Assembly: GCA_951813565.1 (NCBI GenBank)
Contig: OX638351.1
Location: 2,848,001 to 2,912,000, forward strand
Direction of reading: 5' to 3'
DNA: 64,000 nucleotides
Source of the DNA: an uncultured Poribacteria bacterium
Lineage (GTDB): Bacteria; Poribacteria; WGA-4E; WGA-3G
Shown in pieces: positions 4,486-10,695 of this stretch (positions are counted from its first letter, which is position 1; each line of letters starts with the position of its first letter). Below the pieces are notes generated by a model that ran no database searches, had not been told where the DNA came from, and worked only from the letters and a program-made list of their open reading frames with translations. A program made the translations under genes and the position numbers.

Positions 4486-4807
4486 ATGGCACAACCAAAA
4501 AAGATTAGAGCTACCTACAAAAATGGTGTGATTGAACCGTTAGACAAACTTAACCTTCCCGAAGGACAAGAACTTGAGCTTGAATTCAAAGTACTCCCCT
4601 CTGCCACTTCTGAACTTTCTAAAGAAGAAAAAAAGAGGTGATTCGGAAAATGTGAGGCTCAATGAAAGGCACATAGGGAACTACCGTTGAAGAAATTAAT
4701 GCTTATCTCACGTCAGAAAGGAAGTCATGGGACAGAGAACTTTAGAAATAGGCTCAGCAGATTCTGAACCCACTTCTGTGTTATTGGATACGTCCGTTTT
4801 TATATAG
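4486..4807 (+). pseudogene. Degraded toxin-antitoxin pair (AF2212/DUF104-like antitoxin plus truncated PIN toxin)
   Basis: 4486-4641 MAQPKKIRATYKNGVIEPLDKLNLPEGQEL; 4727-4807 MGQRT..VLLDTSVFI* is cut where a MITE begins. Confidence 0.65.
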
Positions 4808-4808
4808 T

Positions 4809-4971
4809 TATACCATTTCTAATATATGAATGTATCATTCTCGGCGGAGATTCTGTAGGAGCGACCTCCCGGTCGCGACCAGGAGGTCGCTCCTACAGAG
4901 GATATTTTCCAATTATATTTGATCCCATAAAATTTCCGTAATGGGTTTTTGTTTATTAGAATTTGTATTAT
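4809..4971. mobile_element. MITE carrying a GTAG-type REP palindrome
   Basis: Ends TATACCATTTCTAAT / ATTAGAATTTGTAT, related to 10783-10909; internal palindrome TCTGTAGGAGCGACCTCC..GGAGGTCGCTCCTACAGA at 4852-4899. Confidence 0.6.
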
Positions 4972-5088
4972 GTCCGATCAATCGGCATCTATCTTTAGAA
5001 CTGGTTTTACTTCTCCGCAATAGTCTGCAAAACTGCATCCGAAAATACGTATAAGTGAATACGAAAAATTTATGCAGTGGAGAAGTAA

Positions 5089-6669
5089 ATGAGGACTTTA
5101 TCAGATAAAATCACGCTTAGTCTTGACAGTGATGCAGACGTGTTGGTCAAAGCCTTCATTGCCCCGATTGAATACACCCAACGCAACTATCACGTGGACT
5201 GGGACGAATTGGCGAACCTAAAGGCTGTTGAACCGGAGAAACAATATCCTACCTCCGTTTTTCAAGCATTTCTGCCATCGGAATCGGTTTCAGTGGGTGA
5301 ATGCTGGCAGATTGAAGAAGAAGGGGCATTAACGCTGCTAAGACAACTCAGTCCAAACCCACAATTGGAGTTGGAAATTGGTGGGGCGGATTCTTACGGT
5401 TTGTGGGCATGTCTACGCGCCTACAATGATGTGTTTGCTGAGATTCTGTTCCGTATCCACGCGGAATTCGTCTTAGAAAAAGGTTGGTTTGCCCCATCGC
5501 AGTTTGCCGGACATGCGGTTATAGATCGGGTCGAAAAGAAAGTTGCCTCCTTCAAGATGCACGTTCCGGATGCCACACTGAACTTTGATGCACGTTGGAG
5601 AATTAGAGATGGACTCTGCGGAGCGGACATCGGCTTTTGCCCGCAAATGGAACTCTGTGCAGGTGAACAAGACGTTTTTCAAGATGCCAAATTCACAGAA
5701 GCGATCACCCAAGAGGAAGCATTGCAAGCACTGATGTTACGTTTTTACAAATCAGCGCGAATTAACTGGGTCCCGCTGGAGGAAGCGTTGGAATTGGCAC
5801 CTGCATTACAGAAACCAATTCACGCCATTTCATCAGGTGGTCCGCTTGCAGACGAGTCGTGCTGAGGGAGTGGCAAAAGCCTGAGGGCAGGTGCCCTCTC
5901 TGACGATCAAAACATTGAATTCCTGAACGAAAATTTCATCAACACTTGGGTGGCAGATGCTGAATTAGGGCGTATCCACAGTTTGCGAGAACCGATTGCC
6001 AAGAGACGCGAGCGCGAGGGTGAGACGTTTGACACAAGCCATCCGTTAGCACAAGCCATTATAAAGGGGTGGAAAACCGGATCGAAAAAAGGTTCACCCG
6101 TAGATTGTTTCGTCATATCACCTGATTTTGAACTGATGGGCAGACAACTTGTCAATGAAATCTATAACGACAGTAGACGTAAGGGATTACTTTCGGATGA
6201 AGAGTATTACCTTATGTTTCTCAAGGAGTGCTTGGAGGGAAAGCAACCCGGATTGGGGAACATCACTCTGAACAGTGAAGAACCTTCTCAGGAGGTCCTT
6301 GAGGTTTTCCGAACACCAGTGGTTGGCTATCAGGATTACACCATTGTTGTCATTGACACAAGGGCGTTTGAAAATGGTGGCACGTTAACCGTTGATATTG
6401 AAACTGGTAGAGCGGATGCGGAAGGGCACTTCTATTTGTTTGATGGTGACAGCGAGCTTCCAATGGATGAACGGGTGCCTAAAGATAAAAGACTTGCTTC
6501 TGCATGGATTGAGCCTGATGAGACAGGGCAACTCACACATCGCTTTGACCGAGGCGCGTTTTTTAGATTAGGTGCTACCGGGTGTTACGGTAGAAGTGAG
6601 AAAGGCAGCACAAATGCTTTTAAGGCAAAAATTTCTGTAGAGCCAGTGGAGAAACCCAGATCAATGTAG
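5089..6669 (+). CDS. Selenoprotein N (SelN)-like protein, paralog 1; in-frame UGA at 5863-5865 read as Sec (526 aa)
   Basis: ORFs 5089-5865 and 5950-6669 are in one frame separated only by TGA; readthrough DESC-U-GSGKSLR..LNENFINTW; FRIHAEF, P-x-QF-x-GH and PQMEL motifs as in animal SELENON. Confidence 0.88.
5883..5898 (+). promoter_or_regulatory. Putative bacterial SECIS hairpin
   Basis: GAGGGC-AGGT-GCCCTC stem-loop; loop starts 23 nt after the UGA and has G at position 2. Confidence 0.65.
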
Positions 6670-6721
6670 TGCTCTGTCCATCTTAAAACTATGGGTTTTG
6701 TTGCATGAGAAACCTAACCCT

Positions 6722-6859
6722 CATGAGTTTTGACGTTCAAGTTGGGTATTCGTAGGGACGTGGTCCCCACGCCCGATCTACAGAAACTCACAAACCAAGC
6801 GGGTTGGGGAACCCAACCGCTACGTATTCAACTACCGATTTTGATTGTCAAAGTTCATA
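6722..6859. repeat. REP-doublet/MITE-like element
   Basis: CGTAGGGACGTGG..CCCG and GCGGGTTGGG..CGCTACG arms within imperfect terminal inverted repeats ATGAGTTTTGAC / GTCAAAGTTCAT. Confidence 0.45.
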
Positions 6860-7075
6860 AGGTAGAAGCACTCTCCGAATCGCGACTGCTAAATGAAACT
6901 TGACAGAACAGTAGCATTTGCGATGCTATACATACTAAAGTTTGGATAAAGTCAAATTAAAATTACGTTTTTTTCTGAAAGATGTTATAATGTTACTGGA
7001 CCTATAGACAGTGTTTTGTAATCAAAACAAACTACATTTTGGCGATACCTTTAATGCGATATAGAGGTAAGAATC

Positions 7076-7360
7076 ATGCTTTCTATCACGTTGGATGTCC
7101 CTAGTGAACTTTCAACCCCACTTTCTATTTCCGGCTATAATCAAGAGAAACTGACTGAAGAGGCAAAACGGTTGCTTGCGATTTCTCTCTTCGAGCGCAA
7201 CATTCTTTCTTTAGGGCAAGCTGCAAAATTGGCAGAACTACACTTATGGGATTTTATTCGACTTCTGAGTCAGCAGGATATCCCGGTTGCTGAATACGAT
7301 GAGGAGGAAATCCAACAGGAATTGAAGACTGTCGAATGCTTAATACAACAAACAAAGTAA
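7076..7360 (+). CDS. UPF0175-family putative antitoxin
   Basis: LAISLFERNILSLGQAAKLAEL..F..LL HTH-like pattern. Confidence 0.8.
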   Translation: MLSITLDVPSELSTPLSISGYNQEKLTEEAKRLLAISLFERNILSLGQAAKLAELHLWDFIRLLSQQDIPVAEYDEEEIQQELKTVECLIQQTK

Positions 7361-7863
7361 CTGATGCAAACAAGTTGATAGCTGTAGCTGATGCCTCATT
7401 TGTAATTGGTATCTCTCTTTGCCTACAGTGGGACACTTTGAAAGCACTTGTTGAAACGTTGATCATCGCGGACAAAGTTTGGGAGGAAGTTGTTGAAAGA
7501 GGAGAAGGGAGACCGGGAGAAAAAGAATTGCGACAGGCGACTTTTGTTGAAAGGCAAACCGTTTCTAACACATCAGCAGTTACAATGCTAATGACAACAC
7601 TAGATAAAGGAGAGGCTGAAACGCTTGTATTAGCAACAGAACAGGGTATAACGAGCGTGTTTGTTGATGACCTACGCGGGCGAAAAGTTGCTCAATCTTT
7701 AGGATTGCAAGCAGTCGGTGTAGCAGGTTTTCTTTTGTTTGCGAAAAAGAAGGGCAAAATTAGAGCGGTTCGACCGTTACTATTACAACTCCAGCAAAAA
7801 GGCTTCCGGCTCAGCAGTAGATTGATCAACGCGGTGCTTGAAGAGGCGAGCGAAACACTTTGA
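7336..7863 (+). CDS. DUF3368-type PIN-domain protein
   Basis: VADAS..I, LDKGEAETLVLA, VDDLRGRKVA, GFRLS motifs; start uncertain. Confidence 0.82.
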   Translation: MLNTTNKVTDANKLIAVADASFVIGISLCLQWDTLKALVETLIIADKVWEEVVERGEGRPGEKELRQATFVERQTVSNTSAVTMLMTTLDKGEAETLVLATEQGITSVFVDDLRGRKVAQSLGLQAVGVAGFLLFAKKKGKIRAVRPLLLQLQQKGFRLSSRLINAVLEEASETL

Positions 7864-7965
7864 AAACTTAACTTGCACGCAACGCGAATTGTCCAACTTT
7901 AGTATACATAAGTGCATCCGAAAATGTGTATAGATGAATAAAAAATTTCTTTAGTGGAGAATTAA

Positions 7966-10002
7966 ATGAGGACTTTATCAGATAAAATCACGCTTAATTT
8001 TGACGGTGATGTTAAGGTGTTAGTTAAAGCCTTCATCGCACCGTTTGAATACGACTCATCCGACTTTCACGTGGAGTGGGACGAATTGGCGAACCTGCGG
8101 GTTGCTGAACCAGAGAAACAATATCCTGCTTCGGTTTTTCAATCTTTTCTACCGTCAGAATCGGTTGCAGTGGGTGAATGTTGGCAGATTCAAGAAGAAG
8201 CTGCATTAACATTGTTGAGACAACTCAACCCGCGTCCACAACTGAAGTTGCATATTAATTCGGGAGATCCTCGGCGTGCTATGTGGGCATGTCTGCGTGC
8301 TTACAATAACGAATTTGCTGAGATTCTATTCCGTATCCATGGACAATTCGTCATGAATCGCGGTTGGTTGACACCTTCACAATTTGCTGGACATCTGATC
8401 ATTGACCGGCTTCAAGAAAATATCGTCTCCTTCAAGATGCATGTGCCTCCAACGACACTGAACTTTGATATCGGTTGGACGCAAGAAGACGGGAACACTG
8501 CTGCGGCTATCGGCTATTGCCCGCAAATGGAGCTCTCTGCTGGCACACAACTGCCTGATGTCGCATTCATCGCGTCAATCACGCAAGAGAAAGCGGGACA
8601 CGCTCTGGTATCGTGCTTCTATAAGTTTCAGAAAATTAACTGGGTATCGCTGGAGGAAGCGTTAGAGATGGCACCCGCACAGCAGAAACCGGTTCATGTA
8701 ATTTCGGTAGATGGACCGCTCTTTGACGAGGCGTGCTGAGGGAGTGGTAAAATCCTGAGGGCAGTTGAGCTCTCTGAAGATCGAATCATAGAATTCTTGA
8801 ACCAAAACTTCATCAACGCGTGGGTACCCAACGCTGAATTAGGACGAACCCCCAGTCTGCGAGAACCGATTGCCAAGCGACGCGAACGCGAAGGTAAGAC
8901 CTTCGACACAAGCCATCCCTTAGCACAAGCAATTATCAAAACCTGGAAAAAGGGTTCACCAGTGGATTGTTTGGTTATCTCACCGGAGTTTGAAGCGATG
9001 GGCGGCATAGACTATAATTTTTTCCCCGAATGTTTGGGCGAGTTTGAGGACGAGGCAGAGGCTTACCTATTTTTTCTCAAAGCATCCATGGAAGGAAAAC
9101 GTCCTGGCTTGGGAGACATCATCCTTACTCCTGAACAACCCTCACAGGAGGTAATTGACACTATTCACACTCCGAAAATGGCACATCAGGACTACACAGT
9201 TGTCGGTATTGACACCACGGCGTTTGAAGGTGGTGGCACACTCACTGCCAACATCCAAGTCGGAAGAGACAAAGGAATAGGGATTTTCCATCTCCTCGAT
9301 GGAGACAAAAAACTTCCGACGGAAAAAGTGCCTGATGGCATTGATCCTACAGAATGGAACAGCCAAGAAAGCGATGAATATAAGAAGGCACTTGGCGCAC
9401 TTACCAGAGTCTGGGGGATATTCCCCGGTGAAACTGGACAAATTACGTATCAGTTCAATCGTGGTCAACGCTTTAAATTATGTGCGACTGGGGATCAATG
9501 GGGTGGGATAGGAGACATAAACGCATTTCACGCAAAAATTTCTGTAGAGAGGAATCAAGTCGGATCCCTGGAAGAGAGACCTATTGGAATATCATCAGCT
9601 CCATTAAACGAGCTCAGCGTTGTACTCAATGCCGAAAAATCTGAGCAAGAAGTTTTGCTCAATTTTCGCTCCCCGGGCAAAGGTTACCAAGATTACACCG
9701 TTGTCAGTGTTGATACTACGGCGTTTGAAGATGGCGGAGTCCTGATCGTTGATATCCGAGTTGGGGACGCAAAAGCGTCTGCGTCGTTTGATCTGTTTGA
9801 TAGCGACACCGAACTCCCGACAGAAGGGATACCCGAGGCACTCGTCTCGGCGTGGGGTATTAAACCCGGTAACTCAGGGATAATCAGACATCGTTTTGAG
9901 CGAGGCGCCGTCTTTAAACTGGGTGCCACCGGCGACTGGTTCAGTAAAAAAGGGGACATGAACGCTTTTGAAGCAAAAATCGCTGTGGAAGCGGCAGACT
10001 GA
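7966..10002 (+). CDS. Selenoprotein N (SelN)-like protein, paralog 2; in-frame UGA at 8737-8739 read as Sec (678 aa)
   Basis: ORFs 7966-8739 and 8797-10002 are in one frame; DEAC-U-GSGKILR..LNQNFINAW; TGA at the equivalent position to paralog 1. Confidence 0.88.
8757..8774 (+). promoter_or_regulatory. Putative bacterial SECIS hairpin
   Basis: GAGGGC-AGTTGA-GCTCTC (one G-U pair); loop starts 23 nt after the UGA. Confidence 0.55.
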
Positions 10003-10695
10003 TCACTGATTGCTGACATCCGATAGCTGCACAAACTGGTATCCGTCCCGTTTAAGTGCTGTGATGATTCGGTCTGTTGCTTCGATTGTCCCTGAACGGT
10101 TTGCGTCCTTATTTTCCGCTTTCCCATCGTGTAGGACGATAATCGAACCCGGTTTAGTCTTTTGCAATACCTTTTCAGTGATCCTATCTGGGTTTTGGGT
10201 CGTCCAATCCCAACTCCACACATTGCAACTGATATGTGGTCGGTTTTCCTTTGCAAGAACCCATGCGACTGGCAAAAAGCGTGTTAGCATTGGTGCTCGA
10301 AATACTATCTCCTCCGAAATCGCGTGTTGCCTAATTAGGTCGTCCGTACGTTCAATTTCCCGCTGGACATAGATCGGCGGCAGAAAACCGAGCACTGGAT
10401 GGCTATAGGTGTGATTGCCAATCTGGTGATCCTCGGCAATAATCCGATTTACTGTTTCAGGATGCTTCTCAATCCGATTTCCAATCATGAAGAATGTGGC
10501 TTTGACGTTGTGCTTCGCGAGGACATCAAGTAACCGCTCAGTATAAGGCGGATTTGGTCCATCATCGTAAGTGAGCGCGACAACCTTCTGATCTGTGTTC
10601 AGGCGAACGACATTCTTCCCGAACGGTGGTCTGAAGAAATACCATAGTAATATTACCGTTGCAAATCCTACCACAATGATAATTATTAAATTCAC
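10003..10695 (-). CDS. Polysaccharide deacetylase (NodB/CE4), membrane-anchored
   Basis: ALTYDDGP, IGNHTYSH, FRAP, DW, IIVLHDG motifs; N-terminal TM segment. Confidence 0.92.
   Translation of the reverse strand: MNLIIIIVVGFATVILLWYFFRPPFGKNVVRLNTDQKVVALTYDDGPNPPYTERLLDVLAKHNVKATFFMIGNRIEKHPETVNRIIAEDHQIGNHTYSHPVLGFLPPIYVQREIERTDDLIRQHAISEEIVFRAPMLTRFLPVAWVLAKENRPHISCNVWSWDWTTQNPDRITEKVLQKTKPGSIIVLHDGKAENKDANRSGTIEATDRIITALKRDGYQFVQLSDVSNQ

Follow-up and report, generated by a model that had tools for sequence, protein, structure and literature searches.

To our knowledge, no selenoprotein other than selenoprotein N (SelN) directly causes an inherited muscle disease in humans when it is lost. 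The animal protein has the architecture of a calcium sensor resident in the endoplasmic reticulum (ER), where it acts in the redox regulation of SERCA, and its catalytic chemistry and structure are poorly defined. Its mRNA contains a selenocysteine redefinition element (SRE), which is mutated in some myopathy patients. According to the sections available of three papers, this element is an RNA hairpin located immediately 3' of the UGA in the SELENON mRNA (PMC12936836, PMC3541580, PMC5727441). In the available part of one of these, a review, it is likened to the bacterial selenocysteine insertion sequence (SECIS) (PMC12936836), and the available text of another states that in animals it enhances selenocysteine (Sec) insertion but is not required (PMC5727441). 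Here we describe two tandem genes, gene 1 and gene 2, in a stretch of 64,000 nucleotides (nt) from an uncultured Poribacteria bacterium (assembly GCA_951813565.1, contig OX638351.1, positions 2,848,001 to 2,912,000 of the forward strand); "the window" denotes this whole stretch, and positions are counted from its first letter. With high probability both are intact selenoprotein genes, members of a bacterial SelN family without membrane anchor or EF-hand, whose Sec codons are decoded with the help of a SECIS-type hairpin.

When the window is translated with table 11, the locus appears as four open reading frames (ORFs) on the + strand, 5089..5865 (258 aa), 5950..6669 (239 aa), 7966..8739 (257 aa) and 8797..10002 (401 aa). 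An original prediction, made from the letters of the DNA, had expected standard annotation to call four genes, and public databases do split the genes of this family at the TGA. If TGA is read as Sec (U), the four ORFs fuse into two, and exactly one TGA is needed per fusion:

5089..6669, + strand: gene 1, SelN-like predicted selenoprotein gene, 526 aa, TAG stop; profile match of 813.8 bits with 1 TGA inside
5863..5865, + strand: predicted Sec codon UGA of gene 1, residue 259, after Cys258
7966..10002, + strand: gene 2, SelN-like predicted selenoprotein gene, 678 aa, true TGA stop at 10000-10002; profile match of 807.4 bits with 1 TGA inside
8737..8739, + strand: predicted Sec codon UGA of gene 2, residue 258, after Cys257

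The claim that each gene is split by a single in-frame TGA at the equivalent position directly after a Cys (5863 and 8737) was confirmed. Both TGAs are preceded by TGC (Cys) and followed by GGG AGT GG (Gly-Ser-Gly), and readthrough yields the motifs DESC-U-GSGKSLR in gene 1 and DEAC-U-GSGKILR in gene 2. Apart from the Sec TGA, neither gene contains internal stops or frameshifts. A global reassignment of TGA was considered and rejected, as TGA ends 14 of the 35 open frames of at least 250 aa in the window and, in addition, gene 2 itself.

The ratio of nonsynonymous to synonymous substitution rates (dN/dS) between gene 1 and gene 2 is 0.256 upstream of the TGA (256 codons), 0.212 in the downstream thioredoxin part (124 codons) and 0.199 in the C-terminal domain (129 codons), with a synonymous divergence of approximately 0.9-1.8. 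Since the values before and after the TGA are alike, the same protein-level selection acts on both sides of it. It had been noticed beforehand that the coding sequence is conserved on either side while synonymous sites have diverged, and the rounded ratios of 0.26 upstream and 0.21 downstream put figures to that observation.

A search for Sec genes had been proposed as a check. All of selA (607 bits, cut-off 267.9), selB (344.4 bits, cut-off 242.25), selD (371.7 bits, cut-off 125) and tRNA-Sec (78.1 bits, cut-off 47) were found in the same 5.43-Mb genome, each above its curated cut-off. In this organism the ribosome would read the in-frame UGA as selenocysteine via SelB and tRNA-Sec, guided by a short in-ORF hairpin 17 nt 3' of the UGA, i.e. 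a bacterial SECIS. A third SelN-like gene elsewhere in the genome contains one TGA and reads DDESC-U-ANGKNLR, and selD has an in-frame TGA of its own (KCAG-U-ASK). The tRNA-Sec gene (C1:5209008-5209097) adjoins selB (C1:5209221-5211116) with a gap of about 120 nt. The selD product, itself a selenoprotein, is encoded at C1:4610940-4611866 of its own genome (locus L011, 1399-2445, - strand). The hairpin 3' of the selD UGA is unlike the SelN hairpin, so that the two give no organism-wide SECIS consensus.

How the site behaves across the family was followed at the protein and at the DNA level. A profile search over 1.84 billion proteins gave 777 matches at E <= 0.001, 131 of them at E <= 1e-30, and the best 149 cluster representatives of this search were used for the protein tallies. 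Among these, 72 stop exactly at the Cys that precedes the site (74 with a wider pattern), and many others start just past it ('MRA..LS...'). Complete Cys-Cys proteins encoded by uninterrupted ORFs account for 6 of the 149 (P0135, P0136, P0144, P0149, P0157 and P0186). Sec and Cys alternating at one column between conserved flanks is what typically marks a true selenoprotein family, and the Cys/Sec alignment at the UGA column that had been suggested as a check is provided by these six homologues. In the alignments, the UGA column of gene 1 coincides with the TGA of eukaryote-type SelN and with Cys in the Cys-Cys forms. At the DNA level, species-representative genomes were scanned with a 13-sequence alignment as profile, and 80 loci were kept. 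A motif search in these loci (Poribacteria, Planctomycetota and Myxococcales) located 75 sites, and 75/75 have TGA. In a survey of the phylum, 9 of the matches listed are without internal stop and the remainder have an in-frame TGA; one of the matches listed has two TGAs and five additionally contain TAA or TAG.

Some members of the family deviate from this pattern. In exported poribacterial paralogues of 557 aa, Sec is replaced by Gly (GGA/GGC) or Trp and in some cases Cys by Ser or Gly, yet the hairpin is retained (e.g. loci L025-L027, L029, L032, L035, L037 and L038, and proteins P0004, P0044 and P0059). They are probably redox-inactive, recent derivatives rather than Cys replacements. The 541-aa entry P0090 begins past the TGA of one unit, crosses the C-terminal domain, enters the N-terminal half of a second SelN unit in the same frame and ends in ...FDDESC, which suggests that some Poribacteria have single polypeptides of two SelN units with two Sec codons. 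P0037, a C-terminal SelN-like fragment, is named 'BrnA antitoxin family protein' by NCBI, probably a mis-annotation that results from the TGA split.

The relationship with selenoprotein N was assessed by profile search and BLASTP. Profile matches that span the site include a 588-aa protein of Vombatus ursinus (UniRef A0A4X2KGP4, 'EF-hand domain-containing'), Nematostella vectensis A7S7Z1, a jellyfish protein with an EF-hand and a protein of the hagfish Eptatretus burgeri (A0A8C4N505) whose UniRef name is 'Selenoprotein N'; mollusc proteins that end at the same Cys are also returned. BLASTP of gene 1 against the wombat protein gives E 1e-28 with 31% identity over 239 columns (query residues 83-287). 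This alignment takes in the Cys-Sec site together with FRIHAEF, PSQF-G-H, PQMEL and LN-FI-TW, motifs which the original prediction had named for SELENON and which follow in the same order in this mammalian orthologue. Gene 2 aligns with the Nematostella protein at E 1e-27 (residues 13-294), and gene 1 aligns with a eukaryote-type metagenomic sequence that has its own TGA at E 2e-19 (query 164-346), with U on U. The latter alignment runs 87 residues further, to a common [S/F]-P-V-x-x-x-V-I-S-P-D stretch. In all three comparisons the similarity to SelN spans the TGA, as had been anticipated.

Genes 1 and 2 each open with an ATG that immediately follows an in-frame stop, and no more than about 10 residues precede the conserved domain. 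The expectation that they lack the transmembrane anchor of animal SelN was upheld and could be extended: neither product has a signal peptide, and a Pfam scan detected no EF-hand in either. Judged by sequence, the products are probably cytoplasmic. Many relatives carry signal peptides or lipoboxes.

Downstream of each UGA, the mRNA can form a short hairpin (the U of UGA is counted as nt 1):

5883..5900, + strand: SECIS-like hairpin of gene 1, GAGGGC / AGGU loop / GCCCUC; stem begins 17 nt past the UGA
8757..8774, + strand: SECIS-like hairpin of gene 2, GAGGGC / AGUUGA loop / GCUCUC, 6 bp in register B; weaker than that of gene 1

The gene 1 hairpin has 6 bp in register A (5883-5898) and 5 bp in the family-wide register B, which extends to 5900. 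The family helix (nt 21-27 with 32-38) was evaluated in 81 distinct poribacterial, planctomycete and myxococcal sequences; it is paired in 92.4% of 567 cells, and four of its seven pairs are changed on both sides (12 cells). The observed values were not reached in any of 500 column shuffles (0/500), and slid registers pair 36-78% of cells. In a narrower test of the 6-bp register of gene 1 on 20 sequences, 95% were paired and 2 pairs were changed on both sides. The commonest hairpin of the family is GAGAGCG-GGUC-CGCUCUC, which is shortened in the clade of genes 1 and 2; the SECIS of E. coli fdhF also has a G-G-U-C apical loop. The stem lies in the codons for Leu-Arg-Ala-Gly-Pro-Leu-Ser. Its Arg codon is AGA/AGG in 79 of 81 sequences and its second Leu codon CTC in 77 of 80, against backgrounds of 22% and 18%, respectively, in the long open frames of the window. 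Covariation and codon bias thus back a conserved stem-loop of the bacterial selenoprotein type, which SelB presumably binds. In two planctomycete homologues (L055 3766-3813 and L063 1142-1189) the stem Arg is CGT and the standard hairpin is absent; these sequences can form a different 5-bp hairpin a few nt upstream (approximately nt 16-30).

The encoded proteins fall into the following domains:

5089..5703, + strand: N-terminal beta-rich domain of gene 1, approximately residues 1-205, common to animal SelN; contains FRIHAEF and PSQFAGH
5740..6258, + strand: thioredoxin-fold domain of gene 1, residues 218-390, from structure model and matches
6250..6666, + strand: C-terminal beta-sandwich domain of gene 1, residues 388-526, absent from animal SelN
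9604..9993, + strand: second copy of the C-terminal beta-sandwich in gene 2, separate profile match to positions 428-558, E 4.2e-48

A structure model of residues 1-390 based on a 150-sequence alignment reached pLDDT 90.9 and pTM 0.88. An earlier model from 10 sequences was poor (pLDDT 51.8) and served only for the confident C-terminal domain. Residues 218-390 match DsbH (2ju5; Z 11.9, rmsd 3.9, 124 aligned), a cytochrome-c-biogenesis domain of B. fragilis (Z 11.7), human AGR3 (3ph9; Z 11.5, rmsd 2.4, 116 aligned), DsbD-gamma and the UAS domains of UBXD7 (Z 9.8) and FAF1 (Z 9.0), and Foldseek returned the Thioredox_DsbH protein 7tkv (E 1.6e-4). In the model, the loop that links strand 244-249 to helix 260-267 terminates in Cys258-Sec259. 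A nearly invariant S/F-P-V-D/E (SPVD, 336-339, in gene 1) comes immediately before strand 338-343 and is probably the cis-Pro loop, which in thioredoxins lies opposite the active site. For the N-terminal domain (1-205) there was no clear fold match, the result lists being filled by the thioredoxin domain, and the C-terminal beta-sandwich is a generic jelly-roll like PliG, PPC/collagen-binding and GOLD domains (Z 9-11.7). A sequence search of the PDB gave no relative, only a chance match to shikimate kinase (E 0.18), and a protein-atlas lookup of the natural homologue P0004 led only to an unnamed Poribacteria cluster (0.78).

With these features, we think it fairly likely that the products are thiol/selenol-disulfide oxidoreductases. 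The redox centre of such an enzyme would cycle through a vicinal Cys-Sec selenenylsulfide, and it would probably reduce or isomerise disulfides or sulfenic acids of a client. The client would be bound by the N-terminal beta domain and the C-terminal beta-sandwich. A bacterium has neither ER nor SERCA, and the function proposed here follows from fold and motif.

Several points weigh against this interpretation of the locus as a pair of SECIS-decoded SelN genes. Sec incorporation into both products is predicted from the genes. Taken singly, the gene 1 hairpin is borderline (z -1.75 and -2.14) and the gene 2 hairpin is no stabler than shuffles (z 0.10 and -0.43); the loop of the latter, AGUUGA, lacks the GGU found elsewhere. 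The hairpin sequence is partly fixed by the conserved amino acids L-R-A-G-P/A-L-S, and an Rfam scan of 4800-10300 returned no SECIS-type family matching it. Nine close Gly-form paralogues, with GGA/GGC for TGA, all keep the stem (6/6 pairs), and therefore conservation of the hairpin is not exclusive to Sec decoding and is no proof when taken alone; these Gly forms arose very recently, and two of them no longer have the loop G/U. The placement of the Cys-Sec pair where other thioredoxin folds have CxxC follows from the secondary structure of the model and not from a structural superposition. Finally, no hint of a substrate comes from the genes nearby (leuD, a small gene pair and a deacetylase).

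Three other explanations have to be considered. The TGAs might be genuine stops, in which case the locus would comprise four genes and each half of it would give separate N- and C-terminal proteins. This would agree with the four ORFs of table 11, for which possible GTG/TTG starts exist 85 and 58 nt past the TGA, and with the databases, which list the halves as separate entries; N-terminal fragments could also come from termination competing with Sec insertion. However, the split would cut the thioredoxin fold between strand 1 and helix 1, at the active site, whereas both the Cys-Cys homologues and animal SelN are continuous across it. In addition, the stretch from the TGA to the supposed start shows protein-level conservation (GSGKSLRAGALS...), and the Sec machinery and the hairpin are present. 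We consider four separate genes highly improbable. Still less credible are recently inactivated pseudogenes with nonsense mutations. In-frame stops are typical of pseudogenes and a multi-copy family could lose single copies, but the TGA occupies the same column in all 75 sites from Poribacteria, Planctomycetota and Myxococcales as well as in the third paralogue of the genome, and a dN/dS of 0.21 downstream of the TGA, with no further stops or frameshifts, reduces the probability of decay to practically nil.

The proteins might also be real selenoproteins of a generic thioredoxin fold, with a likeness to SelN that arose by convergence around the C-U motif. Thioredoxin folds and redox motifs recur often, and Pfam and NCBIfam scans of both proteins, their homologues and the animal matches yielded no family that covers the SelN core, which also counts against our own assignment. 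Yet most of the similarity to animal SelN is in the non-thioredoxin N-terminal domain (13-258), from where it extends across the U to the thioredoxin domain. At about 1e-28 to 1e-35, the profile search yields orthologues that bear the name SelN or are EF-hand forms of it, and S/A-C-U-G-S-G-K/R-x-L-R is common to both sides. Convergence is thus very unlikely, and we regard genes 1 and 2 as SelN-type selenoprotein genes in what follows.

Within the phylum, profile matches were found in 131 of 176 genomes, many of which have 8-12 matches. By family, they occur in 109/111 genomes of f1, 10/11 of f2 and 11/29 of f3, and in 0/24 of the eight other families together. Labels other than Poribacteria were found on 12 of the 80 kept loci (Fimbriiglobus, Pirellulaceae, several metagenome-assembled genomes of Planctomycetota, Myxococcales and 'uncultured bacterium'). 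The proteins closest to genes 1 and 2 are labelled Candidatus Poribacteria, in keeping with the probable sponge symbiont that had been proposed. A maximum likelihood tree was computed in 'quick' mode from 49 sequences and 379 columns; it is unrooted, includes fragments and contains no known sponge sequence. Seven animal-type rows are divided from 42 bacterial rows by a branch with 100% SH-aLRT. Poribacterial proteins fall into two bacterial clades, nested among Planctomycetota, Myxococcales and other bacteria, and the nearest branches to genes 1 and 2 are other poribacterial forms, followed by Cys-Cys forms. The original prediction had raised host-symbiont transfer or a bacterial origin of SelN. 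With the animals in a clade of their own, recent transfer out of a sponge host into the symbiont is disfavoured and has no support in the sequences at hand; a bacterial origin of SelN, or an ancient transfer in either direction, would be compatible with this unrooted tree.

The location of the bacterial hairpin invites a comparison with the animal SRE. When metagenome contigs were searched for the pattern of the animal-type motif, 23 loci encoding LWGALDDQSC-U-GSGRTLRE were found, 16 of which were used after leaving out five exact duplicates (L143, L144, L147, L148 and L155) and two loci apparently cut by an intron (L139 and L150). These eukaryote-type sequences can form a 17-bp hairpin (nt 10-20 with 38-48 and 22-27 with 32-37), in which 87.1% of cells are paired and 4 pairs are changed on both sides. 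The apical loop occupies nt 28-31 in the eukaryote-type and bacterial hairpins alike. Pairing of positions 21-27 is best at i+j=59 in both groups, with 92.4% of cells paired in bacteria (other registers <=74%) and 67.0% in the animal type (others <=57%), and the pairs G23-C36, A24-U35, G25-C34 and G27-C32 are common to both in many sequences. The two elements differ in that the 11-bp lower stem of the animals (nt 10-20 with 38-48) is absent in bacteria. A bacterial hairpin at this place is moreover expected to be essential, whereas the animal element, as far as the consulted sections describe it, is only enhancing. The likeness is partly forced by the common amino acids L-R-x-G/T-P/A-L. Because of this shared constraint, and because the lower stem is specific to animals, homology of SRE and SECIS is rated as possible and no higher. 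Descent of the animal SRE from a bacterial in-ORF SECIS of the SelN family is a tentative idea from sequence comparison, and rather an unlikely one. If it were true, SelN would have passed between bacteria and eukaryotes in the form of a selenoprotein gene, together with its recoding signal; the eukaryotic SRE would be a reused SelB-type element, which would argue for a bacterial origin of SelN. The positional match leads to a testable idea on how selenoprotein genes move between domains of life with different Sec-insertion signals.

In the window, the neighbours of the two genes are leuD, a PIN gene, a UPF0175/DUF3368 pair, a polysaccharide deacetylase and an AIM24 protein. The pair lies between the paralogues:

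7076..7863, + strand: two small genes between the paralogues, outside the selenoprotein genes; UPF0175 (7076-7360) overlapping DUF3368 (7336-7863)

It looks like a pair of the toxin-antitoxin type inserted in the tandem duplication. Between leuD and gene 1, Rfam reported a sub-threshold trpB motif (4852-4957, + strand; 37.3 bits against a gathering score of 59, E 0.013). A neighbour survey of the 12 non-Poribacteria loci detected no universally conserved partner. In 2 of these 12, an ECF-type sigma gene adjoins the SelN-like gene (L054, 1056-2945; L057, 3909-6749), and in P0136 and P0223 the SelN-like domain is fused to an ECF-type sigma-70 region 2/4. Pfam confirmation covers these two proteins, and P0141 and P0160 share N-terminal sequence with P0223. 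Such fusions and neighbourhoods occur in Poribacteria and Planctomycetota. In the uncultured bacterium of locus L062, the SelN-like gene is flanked (186-2953 and 4842-6152) by genes for a BlaI-type repressor, a fusion of BlaR1 M56 peptidase, TPR and AhpC/redoxin and a TPR-redoxin protein. The sigma and redoxin neighbours hint at redox signalling, possibly in a sigma/anti-sigma arrangement, in some branches, and say nothing direct on genes 1 and 2.

With respect to novelty, the original prediction had cautioned that a Poribacteria SelN homologue might already have been noted. This applies to one database record, the bacterial N-terminal fragment P0150, which is already named 'selenoprotein N' by JGI; our literature search found no paper describing a bacterial selenoprotein N. 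A Poribacteria SelenoN homologue is reportedly used by a SelN laboratory in structural work. Bacteria are not mentioned in a PNAS 2020 paper on SelN, and in the main text, as available, of a 2026 catalogue of prokaryotic selenoproteins (PMC13188914) the terms 'selenoprotein N', 'SelenoN' and 'SelN' are absent apart from one reference title. New here are the clean tandem pair without signal peptides, one member of which has a duplicated C-terminal domain, the cross-phylum SECIS analysis and the positional match with the SRE. The SelN-like family is a large annotation blind spot, present in about three quarters of the phylum's genomes with nearly every gene halved in public databases. For structure and enzymology, the soluble bacterial homologues that lack anchor and EF-hand, and the natural Cys-Cys versions with them, offer an expressible model.

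Among known systems, the best structural matches to residues 218-390 are those of the DsbH/Thioredoxin_DsbH/AGR2-AGR3-ERp19/DsbD-gamma/UAS group, at an identity of 13-20% and with Cys-Sec in the SelN-like proteins instead of CxxC. A fold shared with this group is no demonstration of a shared function. An adjacent Cys-Sec pair followed by Gly is also found in the C-terminal G-C-U-G of mammalian thioredoxin reductase, for which an eight-membered selenenylsulfide ring is expected; there, however, the motif sits on a flexible C-terminal tail and not at the start of a thioredoxin-fold helix, and protein and fold are unrelated. The bacterial thioredoxin-fold selenoproteins with in-ORF SECIS that are described in the available part of the above catalogue (PMC13188914) resemble genes 1 and 2 in their UGA at the redox site, the downstream hairpin, the existence of Cys homologues and the splitting of their genes by gene callers. 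They differ in having UxxC or CxxU, as opposed to the vicinal C-U and the large SelN-specific N-terminal domain found here.

Animal SelN is likewise one of the nearest known systems. The N-terminal beta domain and the thioredoxin-like domain are common to it and the bacterial proteins, and the S-C-U-G-S-G-(K/R)-x-L-R motif places Sec in the same alignment column in both. Both also have the [S/F]-P-V-[D/E/Q] loop and, in the mRNA, a hairpin that closely follows the UGA. In contrast to the EF-hand forms of wombat, Nematostella and jellyfish, the bacterial proteins have neither an N-terminal membrane anchor nor an EF-hand, and they add one or two C-terminal beta-sandwich domains. Their Sec is presumably decoded by SelB and the in-ORF hairpin and not by a SECIS in the 3' untranslated region. 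Anchor and EF-hand are features of the animal branch that lie outside the shared SelN core.

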